A DNA stretch of 58,308 nt from a virus. Taxonomy: Duplodnaviria; Heunggongvirae; Uroviricota; Caudoviricetes. Numbering within the stretch: the stretch's first letter is position 1; each line of letters starts with the position of its first letter. The notes under the pieces are model-generated. The model did no database searches, was not told the DNA's origin, and worked only from the letters and a program-made list of their open reading frames with translations. The DNA is taken from the IMG/VR virus record IMGVR_UViG_2778261696_000003; one strand, written 5' to 3'. The position numbers and the translations under genes are program-made. Of this stretch, positions 1 to 44,391 are shown piece by piece.

Positions 1-49
1 TGAGACCATTAAAAGAGGCGTCAGAGGCAGAAAACGTTGCTTAACGTGA
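1..49 (+). CDS. tnpA: Tn3-family transposase, 3' end (partial; gene continues left of window, stop codon inside the terminal repeat)
   Basis: Open frame from window edge to TGA at 47-49, ending inside the 38-bp Tn3-type IR; Tn3-family tnpA genes typically terminate within the IR. No homology search possible. Confidence 0.4.
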   Translation, partial: ETIKRGVRGRKRCLT

Positions 50-77
50 GTTTTCGTTCCACTGAGCGTCAGACCCC
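40..77. mobile_element. Tn3-family 38-bp terminal inverted repeat (outer GGGG end at 77; transposon body lies left of window)
   Basis: Reverse complement of 40-77 is GGGGTCTGACGCTCAGTGGAACGAAAACTCACGTTAAG, the canonical Tn3/Tn2 terminal IR as I recall it; flanking bases differ from the bla-proximal end, so this is taken as the tnpA-proximal end. Confidence 0.8.
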
Positions 78-217
78 AAGTAAGAGCAAAATACCCCTGG
101 CTGGTCCCTGTTCATGCCGATGGTGTGGTTGGAGGCAAGAAAGAATTCACCTTGCTGAACAAGTCAGAGATGGAGTTACTGGCTGACGCCTATGAGATGG
201 CAAACATCATGCACTAA
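78..217 (+). pseudogene. Possible 3' remnant of a gene interrupted by the transposon (frame ends ...EFTLLNKSEMELLADAYEMANIMH*)
   Basis: Open frame without plausible start, abutting the IR and ending at TAA 215-217; identity unknown. Confidence 0.25.
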
Positions 218-406
218 TAAATATATTATTTTTAATGATAAATGATTGACAACTGACAAGTGACTTCAGTCAGAATCATCACATGCCCGGTACGGATGGA
301 TCCCTTTTCAAATATTCCATGGACGGCACAGTCTGAGTACCGGGCGCTACCTTCAGTTGTATTGCTAAGCCGCCGCTGGTGGCTTTTCTTTTTTGTAGGG
401 GGCGCT

Positions 407-1048
407 ATGGATAAGAAAATATGCGTTGTTTCGATGAGCGTCGGCAAACCGGCGTCAATGACTGCTGCATGGATCAATAACGAGCTGATAATGGCTGAGC
501 GGACCAGCTACCCTGAACGCCGCCGCGATATGGAACTCCAGCTGCTGCGCGAATTGCGAGAAAAAGAGGAAAAGGGTTTTATCGTGCTGGTGGAAGAGGA
601 AAACAGCTTTATTACTGGTCGAGTTGGCCAGCGTGTAAGGTTGCGCGATCCCTTCATGAACGGCAGGCCGGTACTAATTGAGGCAATGCAGATTTATAAG
701 GAGCTGGAACGCCAGAAAGCAATCAAGTTACCGCGCAAGGAATCCGGCAAATACATTCTCCACCAAAGCATCTTCGATTCCGAACACGATAAAAAAGGCG
801 ATGAATTTTTCAACATCAACTGGAGCGAAATAACGACAGAGCATGTTCTGACGTTACTATGTTGCTTTGCGACGGAATACAACAACGTTGCCAGCGCCGA
901 CTACATCAGGGCAATGGCTGGAGAAGTTGAGGCCCGCCAAGAACCATCGTTACTAAGTCCACTGATTAACATAATTCTGGGCACCCAGATACTGGAACAA
1001 AAAAAAGTGCCGAAAGGGGTATTAACAGGCAAGCATAATTATTTTTAA
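407..1048 (+). CDS. Hypothetical protein, 213 aa (accessory locus, upstream of the toxSAS gene)
   Basis: ORF track 260..1048; ATG at 407 preceded by AGGGGG Shine-Dalgarno-like sequence; co-oriented with and 93 bp upstream of the RelA/SpoT-domain gene; no recognisable motifs. Confidence 0.55.
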   Translation: MDKKICVVSMSVGKPASMTAAWINNELIMAERTSYPERRRDMELQLLRELREKEEKGFIVLVEEENSFITGRVGQRVRLRDPFMNGRPVLIEAMQIYKELERQKAIKLPRKESGKYILHQSIFDSEHDKKGDEFFNINWSEITTEHVLTLLCCFATEYNNVASADYIRAMAGEVEARQEPSLLSPLINIILGTQILEQKKVPKGVLTGKHNYF

Positions 1049-1141
1049 CAATTACATACAGTAATTTTGTGGTTACATTCTCCATTGATTTTCTAACCGC
1101 TTTATCATTAGATGTAACAGCATGTAAATCATTTAAAATGG

Positions 1142-2278
1142 ATGAAAGCAATGGGGAATGAAGTTTATCAAAGTCAAAAATGCAAGTTGAAATATTCAAA
1201 ATCTCAAATTGATAGGGCTGCTCAATTGATAAGGCACGGGTGTAGTGACGAAGAAAGGCAGCAATCTATTGAAATGATACAAAATTTCCGTGAGCTGCAT
1301 CTTTATCCATTAATGCTCATGAAAAATCATTTAGCAAGAGCAGCTGCTAAGGTTGACAAGGACAAAAAGATTCTCGTTGCAAGAAGACTTAAGCGACTTT
1401 CTACCATAATAGATAAACTAGAGCGTCCTAGTCTTGATGGAGGCAGAACTAGCAATGCAATTAAATTAACACGGATGCAGGACGTTGGCGGATGTAGGGC
1501 CATTGTCAGAAACTTAGACCAGTTGATACAGCTAAAGGAACGTCTTTTAAAAAGCAAATCTGTTCATAGGATTGTTAAAGAGTATGATTATCTTACTCCC
1601 AAAGACAGCGGCTATAGTGGAATCCACCTTGCATACAGTTGCTTCGATCAGAAAGAGGATCAATATCCGTGGCGAAAAACAAAGATTGAGATACAGTTAA
1701 GAACTCAATTGCAGCATGCTTGGGCTACCAGCCTTGAAATAATTGATACCCTTGAAGGTATCAAGCTGAAAACTTCAAGTGAAGGGCATCCAGAATGGAG
1801 ACGATTTTTCTATCTAGCCGGATGTCTTGTAGCGCACGACGAAAAAGCCTGCACTCTTGATGAGCTAGTTGTATCTCAGTATGAAGGCGAGCTTAAAGAG
1901 CTGGAACGGACTTTATCTGTACGGAGGAAACTAAGCACATACACCATCGCCTTAAATTTAACTTCTGACGCGAATTTGATTAAGAAGTTGCCAAAAAATC
2001 ATAAGGGGCATTACTTAGTAACAATGAGAAATGCAGAAAACAAGCCCAATACAAAAAACAAAAAAATGTTCCTAGTGTCTGTTCGCGCATTTAAAACAAA
2101 AGAAGCAGATGAAGCCCTTGAGGCCTTAAATAAAGACGATTCTAATCCTAATGTATTGATATCTGTTCTCGTTGCTACAGATAACATTAAGTCACTAAAA
2201 AAAGCCTACCCCAACTATTTTGGCTCAACAAACCAGTTTACAAAATTCTTAGATAAGCATCTTCGTAACGAAGGATAG
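1142..2278 (+). CDS. Fused toxSAS-type toxin-antitoxin (CapRel-like): N-terminal RelA/SpoT nucleotide pyrophosphokinase domain plus C-terminal extension
   Basis: 378 aa; RSH synthetase motifs visible: RRLKRLSTIIDKL...MQDVGGCRAIV and GYSGIHLAYS...KIEIQLRTQLQHAWATSLE; about 100-aa C-terminal extension; lies where P1 carries res/mod (recalled map). Confidence 0.75.
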   Translation: MKAMGNEVYQSQKCKLKYSKSQIDRAAQLIRHGCSDEERQQSIEMIQNFRELHLYPLMLMKNHLARAAAKVDKDKKILVARRLKRLSTIIDKLERPSLDGGRTSNAIKLTRMQDVGGCRAIVRNLDQLIQLKERLLKSKSVHRIVKEYDYLTPKDSGYSGIHLAYSCFDQKEDQYPWRKTKIEIQLRTQLQHAWATSLEIIDTLEGIKLKTSSEGHPEWRRFFYLAGCLVAHDEKACTLDELVVSQYEGELKELERTLSVRRKLSTYTIALNLTSDANLIKKLPKNHKGHYLVTMRNAENKPNTKNKKMFLVSVRAFKTKEADEALEALNKDDSNPNVLISVLVATDNIKSLKKAYPNYFGSTNQFTKFLDKHLRNEG

Positions 2279-2286
2279 TTGCTTAA

Positions 2287-2311
2287 TTTTGCCCGGTAAT
2301 TCCGGGCAAAA
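2287..2311. terminator. Perfect inverted repeat hairpin (TTTTGCCCGG-TAATT-CCGGGCAAAA) between convergent genes
   Basis: 10-bp arms read directly from sequence; no U-tract after the stem on either strand, so it may be a binding site rather than an intrinsic terminator. Confidence 0.3.
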
Positions 2312-2314
2312 TTG

Positions 2315-2563
2315 TCAATCTGCATTCAGGAGCAATGCGTTATCTATGATGATCTGCTCCCATTCTTCGAATGCCCGATCGCGGACGCCCTGGGGAACAC
2401 TGTTAGTTTTGAAATCGACCACCGTCCGCCATTTTCCGTCAGGACGGTACATGCGCAGAGCTTTACTTCCCCCTTCCCTGCGCACCTCAACGTTATGCTT
2501 ATCAGCAAACTCTTGTAATGCTCGTAGCGTCCCATGCTTTACTGTGTAGTATCGCTTTTTCAA
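2315..2563 (-). CDS. lxc: Lxc-like small protein (C1 co-repressor/Bof), 82 aa
   Basis: Position downstream of ulx-like and darB on the same strand as in P1; size matches recalled P1 Lxc. Synteny only. Confidence 0.45.
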   Translation of the reverse strand: MKKRYYTVKHGTLRALQEFADKHNVEVRREGGSKALRMYRPDGKWRTVVDFKTNSVPQGVRDRAFEEWEQIIIDNALLLNAD

Positions 2564-3000
2564 GTTTTCTCTCCAGCCTGTGCTAAGGCTTCAACTTCCA
2601 AATCGTAAGACTCAAACTCATAGTCCTGGTCGTCAACCTCTTCAGGCACTGGCAGTAAATGCCAGGCTGAGTATATCTGACCATTATCAAAACGCTCCTG
2701 GCTGTAGAGCGTCGCGGCTATGAGTGTTAGCGCCGGGCGGTCATAACGGTAAATTTTGCGAACGTCACGGTCAACGAGACGACCGAAATTACCATAACCG
2801 CGCTCCAGTAATAATTTTTTAATTTCCGGCCAGTATGGACCATAGCTGCGGTACAGGCGGGGATTTTTCAGTAATCGCCCGCGTAGCCCTGACAGGAAGA
2901 AATCAACGTATTCGTCTTCTGTCTTTCCTAACAACGCTGTACGGAGTACCGCCTCAAGATATGTTTTATTCGGTTTTATTGTATCAGATAGTGTGGCCAT
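2560..3000 (-). CDS. ulx: Ulx-like protein, 146 aa
   Basis: Immediately downstream of darB, 4-bp overlap with next gene; synteny with P1 darB operon. Confidence 0.45.
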   Translation of the reverse strand: MATLSDTIKPNKTYLEAVLRTALLGKTEDEYVDFFLSGLRGRLLKNPRLYRSYGPYWPEIKKLLLERGYGNFGRLVDRDVRKIYRYDRPALTLIAATLYSQERFDNGQIYSAWHLLPVPEEVDDQDYEFESYDLEVEALAQAGEKT

Positions 3001-3033: not shown

Positions 3034-6000
3034 TTATGCGTATTGTTGGATGACGGCCAGAACGTCCGCCACGTTGTGTTTTGTCTCGATAATCCACCAG
3101 TTACCCGGGAAATCGCTGTTCTTCGCCTTCGCTGGCAGCCAGCGAGCGCCGAATTTCGCCTTGATTGCGTCTTTCGCACGGAAAAGAACGCCTTTCATGC
3201 CTGAGGCTTCCTGAAGCCCAAATACCTCGCCAGCGGCGAATTTTGGTGCGTACATCATCTTCAGGTCGGCGGTGGATACGCGATAATTCAGACCAAGAGA
3301 CTGAGCTATGCTGGTGGCATCACCCTGTATTGATGATAACTCTTCTTGTTTCTCGTTTCTGGCGGCAATTTCTTCCTCCGTGATGTTGCCAAGGGCCAGG
3401 TTTATCCGATCAGCGTCTGCCTGTTTCTCTTCATCGGTGCGCCCGGCAAGTACCGTGTTAATTCTGTGCAATATCTCCACATGATTCTTGCGCATGCTGA
3501 GCAATTCCGGCGTAACCTCGTTAAGGTCCACCAGCCCAAGGATGGCAAGGTCGGTAAACATTGATACCAGGTTGTAGGTCATGCGATAGCTGAGTTGCCC
3601 ATAGGCTGATGGCAACTGCACCGCATCCATTTTATAGGCATCCATAAATTTAGAGCCGTCGTTTACGACATCCGCAATTGCCGGTGTGATTTTTCCTGTG
3701 GTGGCGGCCTCCCTGATTGCTGTTACCCACGATTGAGTCAGCGCGGCGACTGCATGATTCAGATTGACTTTCCGTTCTGCTGCAATGCGCGCGCTTGCTG
3801 CGTCCATTGCCTGCTTGATCTCGTCTTTATTGCTGTAAATGCCAATGGTGCCAAACTGTGCTGTGGTGATCTCATAATCTGACGCCCGGAACTCATTGGT
3901 ACCGAAAATGGCATTGGTGACTTCAAGTTCAGAATCCCCGTTACGAGTAGCCCCCTGGCTTGTTTTCTCCGGCATTCTGGCGATCGCATCCGCTATTTTC
4001 TCCTGAATTGCTTCAGGGGATAGCGTATCTCCGTATGACGCGATTACATCGCCATAATTGGAGCCAAACAGTTCAACCAGGAATGCTTCTGCCGAACGGA
4101 TCTGGCGGTTATTCCCTTCCGACATCATACCAAGCACCCATTTTGCAATTGACGACTTCAGCGCGCCGTCACGGCGATCCGGGTAAACCGCATGCTTCAG
4201 TGGGTCCGTATAGGTACCAACAAAATCAATGCTATAGCCTGACTCTGTAGTCTGAACGCCGTATGAGTCAGTGATTTTGATCATGCCGCGCTGCTGGAAA
4301 CGGTAGAAATCGTCACAGGAAACGATGTCGTTAATCCCGGCGATGGAGACGCCACCACTGATTTTCTGCATAACAGCATCTTCATCGGGAGTTACATCAA
4401 CCTGTTTATCCAGCGTCTTCACATCCCAGTTACCAGATTTGGTGCCTTTGAAGGTGAAGATGATCTCCACGTCTGCGCGCTGGCTGTCGAAGTCCAGCGA
4501 CTTAATGCGAACGATATCACCGGCACAATCGTAGTATTGGCCTACACGCCATGAGCGATCGCCGATAACAAGGAACTCACTCGCATGGTTAACCAGGTCA
4601 GGATCAACATCCAGAATGCCTTTATTTAATGCATCCTCCACCAGCGGGCGCAGGCGTTTGATATCCGTCGCGGCCTTCTGAGTACGGTTCAATAATTTCT
4701 CATAGCGGGAGATTGCTTGAGAGATATTAGCCTTGCGCTGAATGGCGCTTTTCAACGACGCGCGATACTGTGCTAACAACATACGGTCTGTGTGATGGAC
4801 ACTCCCCCAGCGTGCCTTCCAGTCTGCGTTATCCGCTGCCTTGGCCATTGCCGCCTGTTTGAATTTAGCTACCTCGGCGGTGGTCTTTTCAAGTTCCGCT
4901 TTGCTTCGCTCTAATTCAGCGGTAAGCACCTCCACATCCTCACCAGCTGCGTGCTGCGCCTTGATGTAGTTCTGAAGGTCGATAGTAGCCTGTTCTTTCT
5001 GGCGAGCGCGTTGCGCAGCTTTCGCCTTATCCATTTGAACCTGCATCATTGCCAGACGTTCGCCATCATCCTTAGCGGTATACATCTGCATTTCGATCAT
5101 ATCGTTGGCGTCGGCGTTCTCCATTTCTGACTTATCTGAACGGAGGATATCGGAGATCCAGCCTGCTTTACGCTTCAGCGTCTTCAGTCGGTATTCATCG
5201 AAAGAACCCTTGCCGCAGTAGTAGTGAACGCGAACGCTTGCACGGTTGGAGCCAACTCGGGCACCGCGACCGTTTCGTTGCGCAATACTGGCTGGAGTCC
5301 ATGGCAACGTCAGATGATGGATGTCAGTCGTTCCTCGATGCAGGTTGATACCCACCTCTGCCTTTTTGTTGCAGATGATGATCGGAGTCCGGCCCTCCTG
5401 GAAGTCGGCTGCAATCTTTTCCAGACCGCCCAACAACATTTCATTTTGCTGCGCGATATAGGCGTCATACAGAGCCATTTGCTCGTTGTATTTCGCTATC
5501 TGTGCATCTGTTGGTTCATCCGGTAACTCTTTCGGCGGTTTAACCGCTTTCAGTTTCTTACCGGTTTTACCTGCCTCGGCAACCGTCTGAGCATTCAGGA
5601 TCCCCACCTTTGAAGGTTCAAGGTTTAGAGCATTGCAGATAATGCGCTTGAGCTTCTGGTGCTGCGTTTTTTCATCGGTGAAGATGATTTGCTTACCTTC
5701 CGGGAAAAACTCCTTCAGCGTGGCGATCAGCTTCGCGTATTTCGGCGTAACGGGGTGAGTTACGGTCTGTTCGTCAATGCCAAACCTGGCCAGGCGCTTA
5801 TTCACTTCCTGCTCGAACGCTTCCGGAACCTGCAACTGAATAAACTCGCCCTTATCTATCAGGGAGTATTGCGATTGCTGCGTGATTGAATCATCACTGT
5901 CGTCGTCTTCGCTGGTGGCTTGTTTAGGCAAACTGTCCGCCAGCTGCTGCACCGCATCGGCGTACTCCGGCAGGAAACGATAGGTGATCCGGCGATAGTA

Positions 6001-9000
6001 CAGGTCCATGTCAGTACATACGCGGTCCATATCCCTGATTATTGAGAAGGTCGGACGGGCTTTCTCGTGCTCAATCACGCCGTCTTCATTGACCGAGGTC
6101 GTTACGCCATTGTTGGCTTTGGCCGCCGCTTCCGCCTGCTGACGCAATTCTTCATACGCCGCCAGTTGTTCTTCAGTAAGTGGTGCATCCTGCTGGTGTT
6201 CGTCCAGCTCCGGGATCTCCACGGTATCCTTAACGTCTTCCGCCGTTTTAAGCGTTACCCAGCGATGGAATATACCGCGCAGCGCATCAAGGTTTTCAAA
6301 GCCCACCAGCGCCATTTTTTCTTCAACTTCACCGCTGATTTTCTGTACCGTTTCCAGCCTGGTCTTGCCGAAGAATTTAACGAAGTCATCAGGACCGTAG
6401 ATCCCCATCTTCTGCCAGTATTCCTTCGGCAGAACATGAGAAAGCATGTTGTATGCATCGATCGGGGTGTTAACGACTGGCGTTGCAGTCAGGAGAACCG
6501 GCCCGCGCCCGCCATTCTTTTTCATCAGGTACGCGTTTTTAATTGCCATATCCCGCGCCGATTGCGCCACCGCGCTGGTGGGCAGATAGGCCAGTTGTGA
6601 CGCTTCGCGACCATTTTTATAGCTATTGCGGTAGTTGTGGCCTTCGTCAGCAATCACGCTGTCGAAGCCCATATCCTCAAAGTACGGATACTTCTCTGCT
6701 TTTTCGGTACCGGTATCTGAATACTCCGACAATACCCGGCGACGCGCCGCCTCTTTGCGGTGGGAGTCGGAGTCCATTGCGCTGGCTACGCGCCCGGCGG
6801 CAACGAAGTCATAAAGCATGTCTTGTGCATGCTCATCTACGGTGTCATCACGTAGCGGAATGCGGGCGTATTGTTCTTTGGTAAACACGACTGCACGGTA
6901 ATTTGAGTGCGGGATCGCGTTCATCCGCGCCGTGATAGTGGCTTCATCTGCCAGCTTAAGAGCATCGCGCATAACTGGAGTGCCATCAGTACCAAGAACA
7001 GGTTTACCGTTCTCATTGAGCACCGGCACCTGGCGAATCTGATCGCCATCCATCAGCACATCAAGACCGACGAACAGGTAGTTACTGAATGCCTCTTCAC
7101 TCAGGAACTCTTTTGCTTCGTAATACCAGTTTTCCAGCACTGATTTAGGCACTACATACGCAGTACGGGTGGAGCGACCGTTCTCATAGTTGAACGCCTC
7201 AAGCGCCAGCGCGGTCGTCGTTTTACCCAGCCCGGTGCCGAAGCCCAGGATGCCGCGCCCATCTTCGGACAGTCGTCTCACCTCGCTATTCTGGTAATCA
7301 AATGGCTGGCGCTTACCGCTTAATCCCTTCAACCCAAGCGGATCGCCAGAGTGTTCATACGGGATATTGCTATTGAACACATCGTTGTATTTGGCAACCA
7401 GCTCATCGTAGCGATCGTGCGTCTTGATCCACTTATTGAACTGGTCCTCAAGCAGTGCCATCTGCTCGCGGTAGCCGTTCGCCGTCGCGCTATCTTTGCC
7501 ACCGATACGCGCACCATTGAGATACTTTTCCAGCTGTGCCGGGAACCCGGTCGCGTTTTCACCTGATTTACGGTCCCACTCGTAGCGGATCTCGCCTGTT
7601 TCTTTATCCTTGCGCTGGACGACACCGTATCGGTGCCCGACGAACAGACCATCACCACCGTGATAGGTGTCAGAAACCATTTCGTCGCCTTCCAGCTGCA
7701 CTGACTGCACATAGCGAAGATCCGGATAGCCGTTTTCCTGCAAAAATTCCAGAATGACGGAACGGTCGAACCAACGGCTATTGAGCTTAAAGCGGATATT
7801 CTCTGCTGGCGTCTTGATGCGCTTCTCTTCGATCGCTGCCAGCTGATTAAGGACGTTGTTCTTTACTGGACCGTCGGGGAGTGTGGCAAGGAATTCCTGT
7901 TTTGGTGCCACTATCTCGTTAATGTCGCCGCTGGTGGCGCGGGCGAACGGAACAATCCCGCCATACGGTGAAACCGCAATGCCAGGGGTGCTGGCCAATA
8001 AATTAAGCAACTCGTCATCACTGGCTGGCAGTTCGCCGGTAAACGCAAGGCGGAAATCATCGAGCTGGATTGGATCGCGAGTGAGATCACTGTAGAGATA
8101 ACGCAGGGTGTCCTGATAGCTGGTAGAGTCATAACTGGCGCTGGAATCATGCGTAACCAGTTTTCCTGTCAGCTCGTCAGAAATAGTGCCATCCAGCTTA
8201 ATTGCACCACGGAAAGCAAACCAGGCGCGCGCACTGCTCCCCGATAATTTCGCTATCGGACCGCGACCGGGGTTACCAAAACGGTCAATCTCTGCCTGCA
8301 AACGGGATACCAGAGAAAGGCGCTGCTGTTCGATTTGTTCAGCACTATGCCCGGCGGCCTTCATGTCCTGATATTCAATTAACATCCGGCCAATCATCGC
8401 CCCGCGATACAAGCGTTCACGGTATTTTTCAGGCTGGCTGTTAATCCAGTCCACCAGCTGCACCATATCGTCGCTGATTGATGTGGTGTACTTATCGCGG
8501 ACATTTGCCATCTGGGTAAATGTCATGCCGAGACGGCCTTCTGTTGTAGTCAGGTTACGCTGAAGAGCCTCCCAGCTATCCGCGCCATAACTGGCAGCAT
8601 CGATCTTAAGTTCCTTCCCTGCATCAGCTTCAATCCAGCGACCACCAGCATATTTTTGCCATACGCCATTAATCAGGCGCATTTCCCCTTCACCAACAAC
8701 GTCTGCGGTCGGTGACGGTTCAGCCATATCGAGCAAAGACCAGTCGATACGGCTTTCGAAACGATGAATCAGCTTCGCTTTAAGAGCCTGGTTATCAATC
8801 TGACCGTCGGCACGAACCTCAATACGCCCCTGGAAGCCCTTTTCCTGGGTGCCATGAACAAACCGGCGGCCATCCTTTTCAAACCACTTGCCAGAAATAA
8901 ACGTTGACCAAAGCACATTTGCCGATTCGAGAGTGCTTTCATCCACCAGGGGGATTTTCTCAGCCATCTCTGCCGGATGTTTGCGCATCAGCACCACATC

Positions 9001-9801
9001 TACGACCGTACTGGTCCCGTTAGCGTCAAAAGTACCGGTAGGCAAGCGGTGGGCACCAAGAAATTCAGCTTTCCGTGATAGGCGCAGGCGTAACCGCTTC
9101 ATGTTTGAACCTGAAACAATGGACGGCGGCACAATCACGCACATGAATCCGCCTGGCTTTATCTTGTCCAGCATGCGGAGCATGAAGTAAGAACCCATGT
9201 CCGTTTCTTCTGCGTAAGGCTTATCGATGTTGCGTGTGTTATCACGACCACCGAACGGAACGTTACCCACAACATGGTCGAATGAATCGTTAGGCGTGCT
9301 TACAGCCAGTTGTTCGAACGGGGAAATCTGTACGCTGTCTTCCGGATGTAACAGCTGGTTTATACGACCGGAAACACTGCTGATCTCAGTCGCGGTCATC
9401 ACCGTACCAACCGGTTTTGTCTCATTAAAAACGCCGGTTCCCGCCGATGGTTCCAGAGTGTTACCTACGTCCGCGCCGTAGAGCTTCATGATCTCCCAGA
9501 CACCTTCAGCGATCGGCTTTGGTGTGTAATATTCGGAGACGGACCCGCCAATGCCGCCTTCGCCGGTGTACCCAGCCAGGATCTGGCGCTGTTCATCTGT
9601 CAGTGTCGCGCCGTCCACCAGCGAATTAAGCAAATCTATCGCCTTCTGATTCGCCTCCCGGCGTAGTCGGTCATAGCTTTTGCCTTCCACCTTTTCCACG
9701 CCGTATCTAATCGGCGCTCGGTGAGATGTTATTGCCCTAATGTATTTCAATATTTCGCTGACACTTGAACAGCGAAACACCCCTATAGATAGCTTGTTCA
9801 T
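3034..9801 (-). CDS. darB: DarB-like giant anti-restriction protein (N6-adenine methyltransferase plus helicase domains), 2255 aa
   Basis: 2255 aa as recalled for P1 DarB; methyltransferase motifs (EPSAGTG; VVGNVPFGG) and helicase motifs (GFGTGLGKTT Walker A; VIADEGHNYRN) read in translation; RBS AAGGA before ATG. Confidence 0.85.
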   Translation of the reverse strand: MNKLSIGVFRCSSVSEILKYIRAITSHRAPIRYGVEKVEGKSYDRLRREANQKAIDLLNSLVDGATLTDEQRQILAGYTGEGGIGGSVSEYYTPKPIAEGVWEIMKLYGADVGNTLEPSAGTGVFNETKPVGTVMTATEISSVSGRINQLLHPEDSVQISPFEQLAVSTPNDSFDHVVGNVPFGGRDNTRNIDKPYAEETDMGSYFMLRMLDKIKPGGFMCVIVPPSIVSGSNMKRLRLRLSRKAEFLGAHRLPTGTFDANGTSTVVDVVLMRKHPAEMAEKIPLVDESTLESANVLWSTFISGKWFEKDGRRFVHGTQEKGFQGRIEVRADGQIDNQALKAKLIHRFESRIDWSLLDMAEPSPTADVVGEGEMRLINGVWQKYAGGRWIEADAGKELKIDAASYGADSWEALQRNLTTTEGRLGMTFTQMANVRDKYTTSISDDMVQLVDWINSQPEKYRERLYRGAMIGRMLIEYQDMKAAGHSAEQIEQQRLSLVSRLQAEIDRFGNPGRGPIAKLSGSSARAWFAFRGAIKLDGTISDELTGKLVTHDSSASYDSTSYQDTLRYLYSDLTRDPIQLDDFRLAFTGELPASDDELLNLLASTPGIAVSPYGGIVPFARATSGDINEIVAPKQEFLATLPDGPVKNNVLNQLAAIEEKRIKTPAENIRFKLNSRWFDRSVILEFLQENGYPDLRYVQSVQLEGDEMVSDTYHGGDGLFVGHRYGVVQRKDKETGEIRYEWDRKSGENATGFPAQLEKYLNGARIGGKDSATANGYREQMALLEDQFNKWIKTHDRYDELVAKYNDVFNSNIPYEHSGDPLGLKGLSGKRQPFDYQNSEVRRLSEDGRGILGFGTGLGKTTTALALEAFNYENGRSTRTAYVVPKSVLENWYYEAKEFLSEEAFSNYLFVGLDVLMDGDQIRQVPVLNENGKPVLGTDGTPVMRDALKLADEATITARMNAIPHSNYRAVVFTKEQYARIPLRDDTVDEHAQDMLYDFVAAGRVASAMDSDSHRKEAARRRVLSEYSDTGTEKAEKYPYFEDMGFDSVIADEGHNYRNSYKNGREASQLAYLPTSAVAQSARDMAIKNAYLMKKNGGRGPVLLTATPVVNTPIDAYNMLSHVLPKEYWQKMGIYGPDDFVKFFGKTRLETVQKISGEVEEKMALVGFENLDALRGIFHRWVTLKTAEDVKDTVEIPELDEHQQDAPLTEEQLAAYEELRQQAEAAAKANNGVTTSVNEDGVIEHEKARPTFSIIRDMDRVCTDMDLYYRRITYRFLPEYADAVQQLADSLPKQATSEDDDSDDSITQQSQYSLIDKGEFIQLQVPEAFEQEVNKRLARFGIDEQTVTHPVTPKYAKLIATLKEFFPEGKQIIFTDEKTQHQKLKRIICNALNLEPSKVGILNAQTVAEAGKTGKKLKAVKPPKELPDEPTDAQIAKYNEQMALYDAYIAQQNEMLLGGLEKIAADFQEGRTPIIICNKKAEVGINLHRGTTDIHHLTLPWTPASIAQRNGRGARVGSNRASVRVHYYCGKGSFDEYRLKTLKRKAGWISDILRSDKSEMENADANDMIEMQMYTAKDDGERLAMMQVQMDKAKAAQRARQKEQATIDLQNYIKAQHAAGEDVEVLTAELERSKAELEKTTAEVAKFKQAAMAKAADNADWKARWGSVHHTDRMLLAQYRASLKSAIQRKANISQAISRYEKLLNRTQKAATDIKRLRPLVEDALNKGILDVDPDLVNHASEFLVIGDRSWRVGQYYDCAGDIVRIKSLDFDSQRADVEIIFTFKGTKSGNWDVKTLDKQVDVTPDEDAVMQKISGGVSIAGINDIVSCDDFYRFQQRGMIKITDSYGVQTTESGYSIDFVGTYTDPLKHAVYPDRRDGALKSSIAKWVLGMMSEGNNRQIRSAEAFLVELFGSNYGDVIASYGDTLSPEAIQEKIADAIARMPEKTSQGATRNGDSELEVTNAIFGTNEFRASDYEITTAQFGTIGIYSNKDEIKQAMDAASARIAAERKVNLNHAVAALTQSWVTAIREAATTGKITPAIADVVNDGSKFMDAYKMDAVQLPSAYGQLSYRMTYNLVSMFTDLAILGLVDLNEVTPELLSMRKNHVEILHRINTVLAGRTDEEKQADADRINLALGNITEEEIAARNEKQEELSSIQGDATSIAQSLGLNYRVSTADLKMMYAPKFAAGEVFGLQEASGMKGVLFRAKDAIKAKFGARWLPAKAKNSDFPGNWWIIETKHNVADVLAVIQQYA

Positions 9802-15101: not shown

Positions 15102-15298
15102 TAAAAACCCCGTCAGTTGGCGGGGAACTCCACGTCAAATGGCCAATTGTTATGTCAGCTAGCAGTTAAAGCGCCTAGTCATCATCTTTTAAAGAAGTCT
15201 TTTTAACTTACCTAAATTAGTGACACCTCCCGTTTTGCTTGCTATTGTACGCATTCATGAATCTATTCATTAATCTATTCACAATAGTAATTAAAACT

Positions 15299-16603
15299 AT
15301 GGCTATACATGCAACAACAATCCGTAATTTGCTCAATCAAGGTCCTATGACACCAAGACAATTGGTTGAAAGACTAGGTGTTAGCCAACCAACGATATCT
15401 AGAGCATTAAGAGATCTTGGTGATGAAATCGTTAGGATCGGAAATGGAAGATCTATTCAATATGCTTTACGAGACTCTTTTAGAGGATTCGAATCAGTCC
15501 CCATTTATCGTATAACTGAAGAGGGGTGTATTTGCGTTCTTGGTACTCTCATTCCGGTGAGGCCAGAAGGCTATGTTATGGTTGAGGAAGGGAAAAATAA
15601 CAGGCATAGCGATGGGTTACCTTGGTGGTTATTTGATATGCGTCCACAAGGCTTCCTTGGAAGAGCATATGCATCAGCATATGCTCTTGAACTTAACCTT
15701 CCCTCAAATCCAGAGCAATGGTCAGATACTGACGTGATCAAAGCCTTACTTAAGCATGGGCATGATGTTGTTGGTAATTTGTTAATTGGAGAGCAAGCAC
15801 GCACGCATTTTTTAGAGATGCAGCCTCCTGTTCCTGTTAATCGTGAAAGTGAATATCCTGTATTAGCTTTAGCTGCTGGTGAAGGTGATGTGCCCGGTTC
15901 ATCTGCTGGAGGTGAACAACCCAAATTTTGTACTTTCACAGAGCGTGGACATGTATTAGTGAAATTCTCTGCGCCTAACGACACCCCTATAAGTGAGCGT
16001 TGGAGAGATCTCTTGTTTGCTGAACATCTCGCATTAAAAGTTCTGGGGGTAGAAACAGAAGTTTTTGATTATAACGGTCAGAGATTCTTGGAAATTCCCC
16101 GATTTGATCGTGTTGGTCAACTAGGTCGGGTAGGTGTATTCTCACTTCGTGCACTTGATGCAGAATTTGTTGGGAATGCAAGAGCAACATGGCCCTTGCT
16201 GGTTAAAGAGTTGGTAAAAAATAAGTGCGTCCATCCTGATGCGATTATTATAGCAACAAGGCTATGGTCTTTTGGTTTGCTAATAGGCAATACCGATATG
16301 CATAATGGTAACCTATCGTTTATTAGTAGCCACGGACGCCCATATCATATTGCTCCAGCCTATGACATGTTACCTATGGGTTTTGCTCCACGCTCTGGGG
16401 GAGCAATATCTAATGAGCTTAGAAAAACAGCACTACCAGACTTTGTAAGTCGAAAAATATGGGATGAATCTCTTGAATTGGCTGAAAAATTTTATGCATT
16501 GGCCTGTGAGTCCGACAAATTCTCAGCTAACTTTACTCCATGTTTAGAAGCGCTACGCATCCACCTAGATGATTGTAAGATACGCATAGCCCGCCTGGCA
16601 TAA
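15299..16603 (+). CDS. HTH-HipA fusion Ser/Thr kinase (YjjJ/HipH-like HipA-family toxin)
   Basis: N-terminal HTH (TPRQLVERLGVSQPTISRALRDL), HipA-like core motifs (QPKFCTF...VLVKF; FDYNGQRFLEIPRFDRV; GNTDMHNGNLSF with DxHxxN catalytic loop). Start uncertain: TTG 15239, ATG 15257 or ATG 15299. Confidence 0.7.
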   Translation: MAIHATTIRNLLNQGPMTPRQLVERLGVSQPTISRALRDLGDEIVRIGNGRSIQYALRDSFRGFESVPIYRITEEGCICVLGTLIPVRPEGYVMVEEGKNNRHSDGLPWWLFDMRPQGFLGRAYASAYALELNLPSNPEQWSDTDVIKALLKHGHDVVGNLLIGEQARTHFLEMQPPVPVNRESEYPVLALAAGEGDVPGSSAGGEQPKFCTFTERGHVLVKFSAPNDTPISERWRDLLFAEHLALKVLGVETEVFDYNGQRFLEIPRFDRVGQLGRVGVFSLRALDAEFVGNARATWPLLVKELVKNKCVHPDAIIIATRLWSFGLLIGNTDMHNGNLSFISSHGRPYHIAPAYDMLPMGFAPRSGGAISNELRKTALPDFVSRKIWDESLELAEKFYALACESDKFSANFTPCLEALRIHLDDCKIRIARLA

Positions 16604-38203: not shown

Positions 38204-38794
<591 letters not shown>

Positions 38795-38921
38795 TTAACC
38801 GATTCTACGAGTAGTCATTTGTTCATTGAGTAGGAATATTGTTGTCTGGGGGGTAATCAGTGTAGGTGGAATGAGGGATATGATATGGTTATCACATAAT
38901 CAGGTTGTTTTGAGTAAAACA

Positions 38922-38950
38922 ATAAAACGCCCTTTAATGGGCGTTTTTTT
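38922..38950. terminator. Bidirectional intrinsic terminator (AAAACGCCC-TTTAAT-GGGCGTTTTTTT)
   Basis: GC stem plus T7 run; downstream of sim-like operon. Confidence 0.6.
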
Positions 38951-38979
38951 AAAACTTAAATTGACTATCCTTTCAAATA

Positions 38980-39792
38980 CTATTTTAATTCTATGTAATT
39001 TTTAAATTCTCCCTCATATTTATACATGATGCTATCAAATCCTTCCATTACATCAACGAATTGTTGTGAACATTCCGGCTTCCAAGGCGTACACTTACGA
39101 ACCATATCCATTTTTTTCTTATCCTTCGTTGTATCGACTAAGGATAGGTACCCTATAAAATTCATCATCTGAACAGGATCTTGATTTGTGAATATATATT
39201 TGACGTTTTGCTTAGTAGGCGAAAAAGAATCAAAAGCAGGGAACATATATTCACCAGAAAAAGAGAGTGCAGCATCAATGACGTCTGTTGCAGGAGTGCA
39301 GTTGCTCAGAATTGGCACTAAGCTAAAATTAGCACCTGAGCACACTGCATATATATCATCCCCTTTTTTTAGTTTTAACAGAGAGTCTTGCTTTGAATCC
39401 AATATTTTCAATTTGATATAATTTAGTGGCGTTGCATTTTCCCCTGGAGTAAATAACTCTACAATTGGTTTATTATTCACCATTCTTATGGATTTTATTT
39501 CACCATACACAATTGGAATTGTGTTCCATTTTTCCTGAGCAGCAAATTCATTATCTTTAAAATCATTAACCAACTCAGATGGCAAATGATAACCAAATTG
39601 ATTGTTCATTGCTTTCGAAGCAAATCCAGACAAATAGAATGCCCTTACTAAATCATAATCTTTCTTTGAGGTAGAAAGCCAATCTGGCAATTTATTATCA
39701 GCTATCGCGCTTCCAGCAAAAATAGCACAACAAAATGTTATTACATTAAATAATTTCATTTTCCATTCACTCATTAATCGGTTTAAACTCAC
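38980..39792 (-). CDS. Secreted protein with signal peptide (SimC-like superinfection exclusion candidate), 270 aa
   Basis: N-terminal signal peptide (MKLFNVITFCCAIFAGSAIA); position between tail genes and immunity region as for P1 sim. Confidence 0.45.
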   Translation of the reverse strand: MSLNRLMSEWKMKLFNVITFCCAIFAGSAIADNKLPDWLSTSKKDYDLVRAFYLSGFASKAMNNQFGYHLPSELVNDFKDNEFAAQEKWNTIPIVYGEIKSIRMVNNKPIVELFTPGENATPLNYIKLKILDSKQDSLLKLKKGDDIYAVCSGANFSLVPILSNCTPATDVIDAALSFSGEYMFPAFDSFSPTKQNVKYIFTNQDPVQMMNFIGYLSLVDTTKDKKKMDMVRKCTPWKPECSQQFVDVMEGFDSIMYKYEGEFKNYIELK

Positions 39793-40102
39793 TAATTAAT
39801 TCACCAAGACTATTTGGGTATGCTTTATAAATAACATACTCCGAAGAGCCATCTGAATATTGGTAAGCCCCATAACAGATCAGTTTATTTATTCCTTTCT
39901 GAATAGTTTTTTGATTATAAGAATCAACCACTGTTATTCCATATGACGATAATATTTCGTTATATTCTTCAATAAGAGCTTTTCTTGTTTCCACTGAATT
40001 ACAATCTACCTTCGAAAAGTCAACTTCATCAGCAAAAACATTAAATGTTAAAAAGGAAAGCACTAAAAACAAACGAATCAGCATAAATCCACTCCTACGC
40101 AT
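39767..40102 (-). CDS. Small secreted protein (SimB-like), 111 aa
   Basis: Signal peptide (LFLVLSFLTFNVFA). Confidence 0.4.
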   Translation of the reverse strand: MRRSGFMLIRLFLVLSFLTFNVFADEVDFSKVDCNSVETRKALIEEYNEILSSYGITVVDSYNQKTIQKGINKLICYGAYQYSDGSSEYVIYKAYPNSLGELISEFKPINE

Positions 40103-40105
40103 GGA

Positions 40106-40237
40106 TTAATAGTCATTGATCGCAAAGGCGTAAACTTGCCAAAGGTATTTCGTATAATCGGTACAAATCTCCTTTACGCTTGATGCTGCATTAACAGTCC
40201 CAGCCATAAATAATAACGATAGTAATAGTTTTCTCAT
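40106..40237 (-). CDS. Small secreted peptide, 43 aa (not in ORF track)
   Basis: Manual translation MRKLLLSLLFMAGTVNAASSVKEICTDYTKYLWQVYAFAINDY; signal-peptide-like N-terminus. Confidence 0.3.
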   Translation of the reverse strand: MRKLLLSLLFMAGTVNAASSVKEICTDYTKYLWQVYAFAINDY

Positions 40238-40332
40238 TATAACCTCACCTGCCTTATAACCCATTTAGGGTACATATTTTCGCCTTTAAAAAAAAGAGGT
40301 TATTAGATCCAATTGTGTATTTATTAAGTAGA

Positions 40333-40349
40333 TAATGCTCTAATAAATT
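40333..40349 (+). promoter_or_regulatory. C1 repressor operator (aATGCTCTAATAAATTT) upstream of the c4-icd-ant operon
   Basis: 16/17 match to P1 C1 operator consensus ATTGCTCTAATAAATTT. Confidence 0.6.
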
Positions 40350-40519
40350 TGTATTTTTAAGTCACGAATGCTATCTTTTCGCATCATATTGACCTTTTAA
40401 TCGTTCAGGCTTATAGTTCCGCCGTCGTAGCAAATTCTGCGACCGGGTTTAGCAGCCTGAATGATTGTGCGGACAGCCGCAGATATCCGATATTGCGGTA
40501 TTTTTGTGTCCGTAAAACC

Positions 40520-40600
40520 GCGTTACGCCCAAATTATGGTGGGGCGTGATGGGGAGGCTTCGGCCTGCTGGTTTCACAATCGCCAGTCTGCTAACCCCGT
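40520..40600 (+). ncRNA. c4: Candidate c4-type antisense immunity RNA
   Basis: Segment carrying TCACAATC and CTGCTAAC, complementary to GATTGTG/GTTTAGCAG elements found both upstream (about 40447-40470) and downstream (about 40615-40650, covering the icd RBS). Boundaries approximate. Confidence 0.3.
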
Positions 40601-40664
40601 CACGTCCTGCCACCTGTTTAGCAGCGGGTAGCAGGTTGTTAAACCTGATTGTGAGGCCGTAACT

Positions 40665-42089: not shown

Positions 42090-42890
42090 ATGCAACAAAC
42101 ATTCAATGCGGATATGAATATATCAAACCTTCATCAAAATGTCGATCCTTCAACCACTCTGCCTGTTATTTGTGGTGTTGAAATTACGACCGACCGCGCT
42201 GGCCGTTACAACCTTAATGCTCTACACAGAGCGAGCGGACTCGGTGCCCATAAAGCGCCAGCTCAATGGCTAAGAACGCTGTCAGCCAAACAGCTCATCG
42301 AAGAGCTTGAAAAAGAAACTATGCAGAATTGCATAGTTTCGTTCGAAGGCCGTGGCGGCGGCACTTTTGCCCATGAATTGCTCGCTGTGGAGTACGCAGG
42401 CTGGATTTCTCCCGCGTTTCGGCTGAAGGTAAACCAGACATTTATCGACTATCGAGCCGGAAGATTACAACCTGCTATTCCGCAGAGTCTCCCTGAAGCT
42501 CTCCGTTTGGCTGCCGACCTGGCAGAGCAAAAGCAACGGCTGGAGCAAAAAATGCTTATGGATGCACCTAAAGTCGAATTCGCCGAACGCGTTGCTACCG
42601 CCAGCGGGGTTCTAATCGGCAACTATGCCAAAGTGCTCGGTCTGGGCCAAAACTATCTCTTCACCTGGTTGCGTGATAACGGAATTCTGATCGCAACCGG
42701 TGAACGCAGGAACGTCCCCAAACAAGAATACATATCCCGTGGGTATTTCACCCTTAAAGAAACCGTGATCGATACAAGCAATGGAAGCAGGATTTCTTTC
42801 ACGACTCGTATAACCGGCAAAGGTCAGCAGTGGCTGATGAAGCGATTGCTTGATGCTGGTGTGCTGGTACCTGTCGCGGCAACGCGCTAA
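42090..42890 (+). CDS. kilA: KilA (KilA-N plus KilAC domains), 266 aa
   Basis: N-terminal KilA-N-like region (RYNLNALHRASGLGAHKAPAQWLRT), C-terminal ANT/KilAC region; size equals recalled P1 KilA. Confidence 0.8.
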   Translation: MQQTFNADMNISNLHQNVDPSTTLPVICGVEITTDRAGRYNLNALHRASGLGAHKAPAQWLRTLSAKQLIEELEKETMQNCIVSFEGRGGGTFAHELLAVEYAGWISPAFRLKVNQTFIDYRAGRLQPAIPQSLPEALRLAADLAEQKQRLEQKMLMDAPKVEFAERVATASGVLIGNYAKVLGLGQNYLFTWLRDNGILIATGERRNVPKQEYISRGYFTLKETVIDTSNGSRISFTTRITGKGQQWLMKRLLDAGVLVPVAATR

Positions 42891-44061: not shown

Positions 44062-44129
44062 TACAATCGTTGCGGGTGCTTGAGGCTATCTGCTTCAGGC
44101 ATTACCCGAAAAGCAGATAGAAGAAAGCC

Positions 44130-44200
44130 CCAGATAACATTACGCGTCCTGCAAGACGCTTAACATTAATCTGAGGCAATATCTATGCTTAGCATACGTA
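44130..44200 (-). ncRNA. sok: Candidate Sok-type antisense RNA of the hok/mok locus
   Basis: Minus-strand promoter-like TTGACC (plus coords 44225-44230) with GCTAAT -10-like hexamer, directed across the mok start/hok leader. Boundaries approximate. Confidence 0.3.
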
Positions 44201-44391
44201 GATTAGCCTCTTACCGACCAAAAGGTCAAGGAGAAGCAGGCTATGAAGCAGCAAAAAGCGATATTAATCGCTCTGATCGTCATCTGTTTAACCGTCATTG
44301 TGACGGCACTGGTAACGAGGAAAGACCTCTGCGAGGTACGAATCCGAACCGGCCAGACGGAGGTCACTGTCTTCACAGCCTACGAATCTGA
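44185..44391 (+). CDS. mok: Mok-like overlapping reading frame (translational coupling frame for hok), 68 aa
   Basis: ORF overlapping hok in another frame, as in hok/mok/sok loci. Confidence 0.45.
   Translation: MLSIRRLASYRPKGQGEAGYEAAKSDINRSDRHLFNRHCDGTGNEERPLRGTNPNRPDGGHCLHSLRI

Follow-up and report, generated by a model that had tools for sequence, protein, structure and literature searches.

The stretch of DNA analyzed here (58,308 nucleotides, hereafter the window) starts with 9 kb that were 100% identical to the E. coli plasmid p1540-3 (NZ_CP019054.1), a P1-like phage-plasmid carrying an IS26/aph resistance region upstream of the shared stretch. The window opens on the end of a Tn3-family transposon (positions 1 to 77, plus strand), which serves as context only and lies outside the defense gene. 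This end comprised the last codons of tnpA (1 to 44, stop codon at 42 to 44) and a 38-bp terminal inverted repeat of Tn3 type (40 to 77) that matched the Tn3 ends found in P7 and in cloning-vector records; in NZ_CP019054.1, the DNA upstream of the shared stretch encoded the C-terminus of a Tn3-type TnpA. Next to it, a 3' remnant of ref (Δref, 78 to 217, plus strand, stop codon at 215 to 217), cut by the transposon insertion, was recovered by megablast to P1, window position 78 corresponding to P1 nucleotide 2498 (ref of P1 spans 2077 to 2637). The maturation control gene mat (296 to 1048, plus strand) displayed 96 to 99% identity to mat of P1 and its relatives; its start is placed at 407 by RefSeq and by the SJ46 annotation, and the gene measures 642 nt in SJ46 and p1540-3.

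Downstream of mat, a low-GC cargo cassette of about 1.25 kb (1043 to 2290, plus strand) had a GC content of 0.34 to 0.42, against about 0.52 in its flanks. It encompassed the very end of mat (two codons and the stop codon), an upstream region of 93 to 102 nt, the capRel gene and 12 nt past its stop codon. A GC-rich hairpin (2291 to 2307, GCCCGGTAATTCCGGGC), located where capRel and lxc converge, formed the right boundary of this slot, of which mat is the left flank, and probably acts as a bidirectional terminator. On its other side were lxc (a modulator of C1 that flanks the slot on the right, 2315 to 2563), ulx (a Ulx-like anti-restriction component, 2560 to 3000) and darB (a 2255-aa methyltransferase/helicase for defense against restriction, 3034 to 9801), all encoded on the minus strand. 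No tRNA gene was detected in the window by a tRNA scan.

The gene order in the window was accordingly Tn3-type end, Δref, mat, capRel, lxc, ulx and darB, while phage P1 (NC_005856) displays the order ref-mat-res-mod(IS5)-lxc-ulx-darB and phage SJ46 the order Tn1721 tnpA-mat-capRel-lxc-ulx-darB. A preliminary description of this DNA had located the gene between a transposon end and lxc/ulx/darB; the right-hand neighbors were as described, but the immediate neighbor on the left is mat and not the transposon end. The statement, in the same description, that P1 carries type III restriction-modification genes at this position was accurate, res-mod lying between mat and lxc in NC_005856. Judged by eye, the regions 5' of capRel in the window and in SJ46 appear related.

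The ORF list of the window contained an intact ORF of 378 aa at 1142 to 2278 on the plus strand. The three motifs that had been quoted from it in the preliminary description were all found as given, at aa 112-122 (MQDVGGCRAIV), aa 157-166 (GYSGIHLAYS) and aa 181-197 (KIEIQLRTQLQHAWATS) in the 378-aa numbering. Translation is likelier to start at ATG 1151, which yields a protein of 375 aa (1151 to 2278), than at the alternative upstream ATG 1142, since the former matches the N-terminus of the SJ46 and PDB sequences as well as the RefSeq entry WP_000526244.1, and is preceded by the Shine-Dalgarno-like motif GGATGA. The 375-aa form was present on at least 1,000 contigs. A scan of positions 900 to 2700 against the sigma-70 consensus called no promoter directly upstream of capRel; the lone weak promoter-like site in this range (966 to 993) fell within the 3' end of mat, and such sites were fewer than in shuffled sequence. 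By analogy with the native-promoter constructs of SJ46, capRel is assumed to be expressed.

The Pfam RelA_SpoT profile matched aa 82-196 above its gathering cutoff (E = 3e-12, 47.2 bits versus 27 bits), as the preliminary description had anticipated, and the PADLOC candidate PDC-S33 matched over the full length (E = 6.7e-86, 286.9 bits; aa 14-374 against positions 4-342 of the 349 of the profile). The toxSYNTH toxin domain, a RelA/SpoT nucleotide pyrophosphokinase, spanned 1151 to 1750, and was followed by a C-terminal antitoxin/sensor region (1751 to 2275), delimited by alignment to SJ46/7ZTB with region roles taken from PMC9712102 and PMC11578894. Within the latter, the same alignment placed helix α9, part of anchor-1, at nt 1958-1987, the pseudo-ZFD at about nt 1988-2164, and the YXXY motif (YPNY) of anchor-2 at nt 2207-2218 (aa 356-359 in the 378-aa numbering), all on the plus strand. 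A C-terminal extension had thus been rightly recognized in the preliminary description, but its length had been put at about 100 aa, while about 175 aa (the anchors and the pseudo-ZFD) follow the catalytic domain, about 100 of which correspond to the sensor and the last anchor. Both the phmmer matches and the ORFs of the cassette placed the antitoxin/sensor on the same polypeptide as the toxin: capRel was the sole gene of the cassette, within which no separate antitoxin ORF was found.

When all PDB chains were searched with phmmer, the protein aligned in one full-length stretch with 7ZTB_A (E = 4.9e-185, query aa 4-374 against chain residues 1-370) and likewise with 9ERV_A (E about 1e-185). 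[quoted passage not shown] Nature 2022 and 2024). Identity was 73.7% end to end, and this full-length identity of 74% to a crystal-structure sequence settles the homology to CapRel, in agreement with the family assignment first made from the letters of the sequence. Both proteins display the same single-polypeptide architecture of toxSYNTH domain, anchors and pseudo-ZFD, and the SJ46 gene occupies the same slot in the same orientation in a P1-like phage-plasmid (mat | capRel | lxc-ulx-darB).

Conservation was unevenly distributed along the protein. Using approximate region boundaries drawn from the residues named in PMC9712102 and PMC11578894, identity reached 79% in the toxSYNTH domain (SJ46 residues 1-200), 71% in residues 201-269, 80% in helix α9 of anchor-1 (270-279), about 59% in the pseudo-ZFD region (280-337) and 72% in residues 338-373. 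The sensor was the most diverged part (53 to 60% identity in 30-aa sliding windows), and the pseudo-ZFD of the window allele differed from that of CapRel^SJ46 by a 1-aa insertion. [quoted passage not shown] The alignment also displayed conservation of L280 and L307, the substitution of which abolished or reduced capsid binding in CapRel^SJ46 (PMC9712102). Among the residues involved in sensing Gp54 (roles from PMC11578894), L270, D273, N275, L276, K278 and K316 were kept, and two positions were changed (S279 to K, R314 to K).

At the nucleotide level, the two capRel alleles shared 68.6% identity. Synonymous divergence was saturated (pS 0.85) against a pN of 0.17, and pN peaked in the sensor region (0.235) and was lowest in the toxin domain (0.142), a pattern that agrees with the published description of the pseudo-ZFD as the least conserved part of CapRel. 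By these substitution patterns, the two alleles are old and deeply diverged under purifying selection. The plasmid matches obtained by tblastn fell into two groups, at 95% identity or more (52 records) or at 60-80% (22 records, with matches at 74-78%, the full-length ones listed being at 74%); no intermediates between the two groups were found among these plasmid matches, and the next relatives stood at about 30%.

Identical copies of capRel (100%) occurred in at least 24 PLSDB plasmids among the matches listed, and the window allele was found at 99% DNA identity or more in 52 PLSDB plasmids. At the same identity, it was present in 83 of 5,426 complete E. coli genomes, and 83 of its 87 places there were on plasmids. 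The P1-type lxc-ulx marker was detected in 699 of these 5,426 genomes, about 12% of which carried the window allele. The SJ46 allele was present in only 14 of the 5,426, so that the window allele was about six times more common. Variation within the allele was restricted to 2 to 4 conservative substitutions (S39A, D170E, K249R, I266L, N332D, E374K), and a search of these polymorphisms for diversification of the sensor displayed no notable clustering. The occurrence of identical or nearly identical copies in many plasmids and genomes indicates that the gene is maintained and not decaying. A reading of capRel as a pseudogene was ruled out by the intact ORF together with the identical copies in many plasmids.

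The content of the mat-lxc interval was compared across 83 loci, comprising 80 P1-like IMG/VR loci fetched through a Ulx anchor together with P1, SJ46 and vB_EcoM-673R5, and could be scored in 74 of the 83. In vB_EcoM-673R5, capRel is annotated as split, by frameshifts that belong to that record and not to the window. Interval length ranged from 35-47 bp, in seven loci where the slot was empty, up to 6.3 kb, and about 15 classes of sequence, amounting to about a dozen kinds of cargo, were found besides the empty state, with all cargo classes being GC-poor (0.32 to 0.43). Cargo identities were obtained from family scans of class representatives, and counts spanned all 83 loci, the window itself being excluded. 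A SIR2_2/PDC-S25/ThsA-like protein (12 + 2 loci), the EcoP1I type III res/mod (10 loci), a DUF2971/PDC-S31 protein (10 loci) and the SJ46 allele of CapRel (7 loci) were accompanied by PIN_12 (5 loci), two versions of a GNAT acetyltransferase (4 + 4 loci), ANT/KilAC with HTH and JukA (4 loci), the window allele of CapRel (3 loci), EAL with or without an AraC-like protein (3 loci), YaaC with a nucleoside-deoxyribosyltransferase-like protein (2 loci) and a small lipoprotein (2 loci).

The junctions of the cassette were sharply defined. On the left, homology to an empty-slot locus (L033) stopped at about 1042/1043, two codons before the stop of mat, and on the right it restarted at 2291 with a hairpin identical to that of the window; comparable GC-rich hairpins ended almost every cargo class. 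The window locus shared the features of the variable res/mod slot, namely a position between mat and lxc-ulx-darB, a low GC content and alternative contents in relatives. Among 54 P1-like phage-plasmids, res-mod has been described as the low-GC 'highly variable region 1' (PMC9603915). The comparison of loci supports the view of the mat-lxc interval as a swappable defense cargo slot, as had been suggested from the single locus.

The same slot in P1 holds EcoP1I res/mod, which is likewise a low-GC accessory defense cargo, but one with an unrelated mechanism (DNA restriction) that consists of two genes over about 5-6.3 kb and lies on the strand opposite to that of capRel. The same principle of swapped defenses at fixed positions between conserved genes has been reported for temperate elements of a family other than that of P1 (a 2022 study cited in PMC10879196; PMC13586616).

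With the homology and the genomic position considered together, it is highly likely that the window gene encodes a fused toxSAS anti-phage protein of the CapRel family, carried as accessory cargo in the P1-like mat-lxc slot and acting by a mechanism predicted from its homolog CapRel^SJ46. Every structural element needed by the SJ46-type mechanism was conserved in the protein. In an uninfected cell, the C-terminal pseudo-zinc-finger sensor would be folded onto the N-terminal RelA/SpoT-type pyrophosphokinase, with the YXXY motif wedged between the ATP-coordinating R79 and R116, where it would block the adenine site and keep the protein autoinhibited. Upon infection by a sensitive phage, a newly made phage protein would bind the pseudo-ZFD and the anchors and hold the protein open, and the opened toxin domain would then transfer pyrophosphate from ATP to the 3' CCA ends of tRNAs, which would halt translation and abort the infection. 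For CapRel^SJ46, toxicity of the N-terminal fragment is relieved when the C-terminal fragment is supplied in trans, the Y155A substitution leads to loss of defense, and pyrophosphorylation of tRNA 3' CCA ends results in translation arrest (PMC9712102). By analogy with this 74%-identical homolog, the window allele is predicted to be toxic, to modify tRNA and to protect against phages upon sensing a phage trigger.

The genomic distribution of the gene could also be read differently, as that of an authentic CapRel which chiefly benefits the phage-plasmid itself, through superinfection exclusion of rival P1-like or other temperate elements or through plasmid maintenance, and not as a general defense against lytic phages. 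Its near confinement to P1-like plasmids (83 of the 87 occurrences in E. coli genomes) fits such a role, as do the adjoining anti-restriction genes of the element, ulx and darB, and the finding that a related system, PhRel/Gp30 of mycobacteriophage Phrann, stops superinfecting temperate phages (PMC9712102). Toxin and antitoxin being one polypeptide, a fused CapRel cannot work as a classical post-segregational killer, however, and the CapRel^SJ46 encoded in the same slot confers protection from lytic phages of the T-even and SECΦ27-like groups (PMC9712102). This reading was considered very unlikely; host defense and benefit to the phage-plasmid are compatible with each other.

Likewise, a CapRel-fold toxSAS that would act by (p)ppApp synthesis and ATP depletion (FaRel/Tas1-like) instead of tRNA pyrophosphorylation seems very unlikely, for although (p)ppApp is made by some toxSAS toxins (PMC9712102), CapRel is described as a toxSAS subfamily that inhibits translation. 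The weakest reading, a housekeeping-type small alarmone synthetase (RelQ/RelP/YjbM-like) making (p)ppGpp for the host or plasmid without any toxin-antitoxin defense, can draw on matches of the catalytic domain to SAS structures (6EWZ, 5DEC and others; phmmer against PDB, E = 1e-5 to 2e-8) and to the YjbM family (NCBIfam GTPPhKinYjbM, NF053588, E = 8e-9), but was rejected as very improbable on these same NCBIfam and PDB scores, the former reaching 35.5 bits against an equivalog cutoff of 320 and the latter covering aa 78-198 only against the full-length match to CapRel^SJ46, while the autoinhibitory C-terminal YXXY and interface residues, at odds with a plain SAS, were kept, and the gene is located in a phage-plasmid defense slot.

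Small changes in the sensor shift specificity in the CapRel family. For the anti-phage CapRel preferred here, a trigger range that overlaps that of SJ46 without being identical to it is most likely, as most contact residues were kept and yet the pseudo-ZFD was only about 59% identical. A phage capsid protein had been proposed as the signal in the preliminary description. This holds for CapRel^SJ46, which is triggered by the major capsid protein (PMC9712102), but the capsid is not the only trigger of the family: CapRel^SJ46 also responds to Gp54 of Bas11, a small protein that binds α9 and the pseudo-ZFD (PMC11578894), and CapRel^Ebc is activated by Gp0.4 of T7 in combination with the host protein FtsZ (PMC13423816), an activation that extends the triggers of the family beyond capsid proteins. 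CapRel^Ebc (Enterobacter chengduensis) and CapRel^Kp (Klebsiella pneumoniae) are fused CapRel defense proteins as well, in which a variable C-terminal domain determines phage specificity (PMC9712102); they differ in phage range (T7 and SECΦ18, respectively), and their likeness to the window protein is by description. Other prophage-encoded defenses, PhRel/ATphRel (Gp29/Gp30) of Phrann, FaRel2 and PhRel2, also rely on a RelA/SpoT-type toxin that pyrophosphorylates the tRNA CCA end (PMC9712102), but their toxin and antitoxin are separate genes, unlike those fused in the window protein.

A broader reading, in which the trigger set of the allele differs from that of SJ46 (possibly including non-capsid triggers) and the mat-lxc interval is a true defense hotspot with cargos that represent new systems, is tentative, being a real possibility though somewhat more doubtful than probable. 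If the interval is such a hotspot, these new systems may act in defense or in counter-defense, and GNAT, YaaC with the nucleoside-deoxyribosyltransferase-like protein, EAL with or without the AraC-like protein, DUF2971/PDC-S31, PIN_12 and the small lipoprotein may be candidates among the cargos of one or two genes.

The assignment to CapRel is correct but was already known, since the P1-like phage SJ46 has its own CapRel in the identical slot; the family and the locus are known, and the allele is catalogued in databases. CapRel^SJ46 itself was picked from the temperate phage SJ46 and also occurs in E. coli prophages (PMC9712102), and, according to a 2025 preprint, CapRel or dGTPase is commonly carried by E. 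coli P1-like phage-plasmids, while those of Salmonella have type III R-M (10.1101/2025.09.12.675607). In the searchable literature, no paper naming the mat-lxc interval as a defense hotspot was found besides general statements and the region of PMC9603915, which is a gap in labeling and not a new kind of biology; the literature likewise returned no paper testing the window allele and no mention of PDC-S33 or WP_000526244. Reading of the sequence alone recognized the CapRel gene and its genomic logic, and added little new biology. The mat-lxc slot nevertheless offers a compact and well-bounded place to seek more single-gene defense candidates. A modest new point is that the window allele, and not the studied SJ46 allele, predominates in E. 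coli; as the common E. coli allele, its phage range matters for phage therapy and for work with P1 transduction.

The slot, i.e., the interval between mat and lxc that holds capRel in the window and other cargos in related P1-like phage-plasmids, ended on its right side with a GC-rich hairpin (GCCCGGTAATTCCGGGC, 2291-2307) that separated the cargo from the stop codon of lxc. Empty slots also kept this hairpin, and nearly all cargo classes displayed a similar hairpin of different sequence at the cargo 3' end (loci L002-L082 of the surveyed P1-like loci). The hairpin may act as a shared bidirectional terminator or, alternatively, may show where recombination into the slot stops. On the mat side, the 3' end of mat was itself swapped in some cargo classes, the match to mat stopping at nt 510-581 of 642.

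Cargos without an established defence role were also found in the slot (loci L004-L083). They encompassed a GNAT acetyltransferase (201-202 aa, in two versions), a YaaC-like protein paired with a nucleoside-2-deoxyribosyltransferase-like one, a lipoprotein of 135 aa, and an EAL-domain protein that was sometimes accompanied by an AraC-like regulator. Phage vB_EcoM-673R5 (ON470615.2, locus L001) harbored the capRel allele of the window at 5070-6169, where frameshifts that are absent from the window and from dozens of plasmids split the annotation into two coding sequences. These frameshifts are probably sequencing errors in the record, or possibly reflect a recent inactivation of the gene.

The left edge of the window (1-77) consisted of a Tn3-family transposon end, with the tnpA stop codon at 42-44 and a 38-bp inverted repeat at 40-77. 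This transposon end interrupted ref, of which only the final 140 nt were kept (to position 217). In SJ46, a different transposon, Tn1721, was located near the same site, upstream of mat. In the E. coli plasmid p1540-3, DNA upstream of the part identical to the window carried IS26 along with aph(3'')-Ib, aph(6)-Id and aph(3')-Ia.

An ORF of 454 aa on the plus strand (15239-16603), located in an island of low GC content (about 0.40), encoded an N-terminal winged-helix HTH (MarR/ArsR-like) fused to a HipA_C kinase domain. The phage-plasmid may thus carry, in this gene, a second accessory function of the toxin or defence type. Its site appears to correspond to the IS1/isaAB region of P1, which would place it in another variable region already published. 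A full-length sok antitoxin RNA was detected on the plus strand at 44074-44248 (Rfam, 114 bits versus a gathering score of 59), therefore implying a hok/sok-type module 3' of the kilA-like gene (42090-42890), at a position that seems close to the variable rlfA/rlfB region of P1.

Two elements of the P1 immI immunity region were intact on the plus strand, namely the C4 antisense RNA at 40532-40617 and, at 40411-40463, the a1/b1 sites that it targets. The GC minimum of the window (0.35) was found just upstream, at 38701-40500, and included an ORF of 270 aa on the minus strand (38980-39792) with no match in Pfam or PADLOC.

Near the end of the window (56458-58247, plus strand), the gene for an RdgC-family protein of 339 aa preceded an ORF of 257 aa for a C-5 cytosine DNA methyltransferase. 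The latter may have an anti-restriction role, since its top PADLOC match was an orphan-methyltransferase model.
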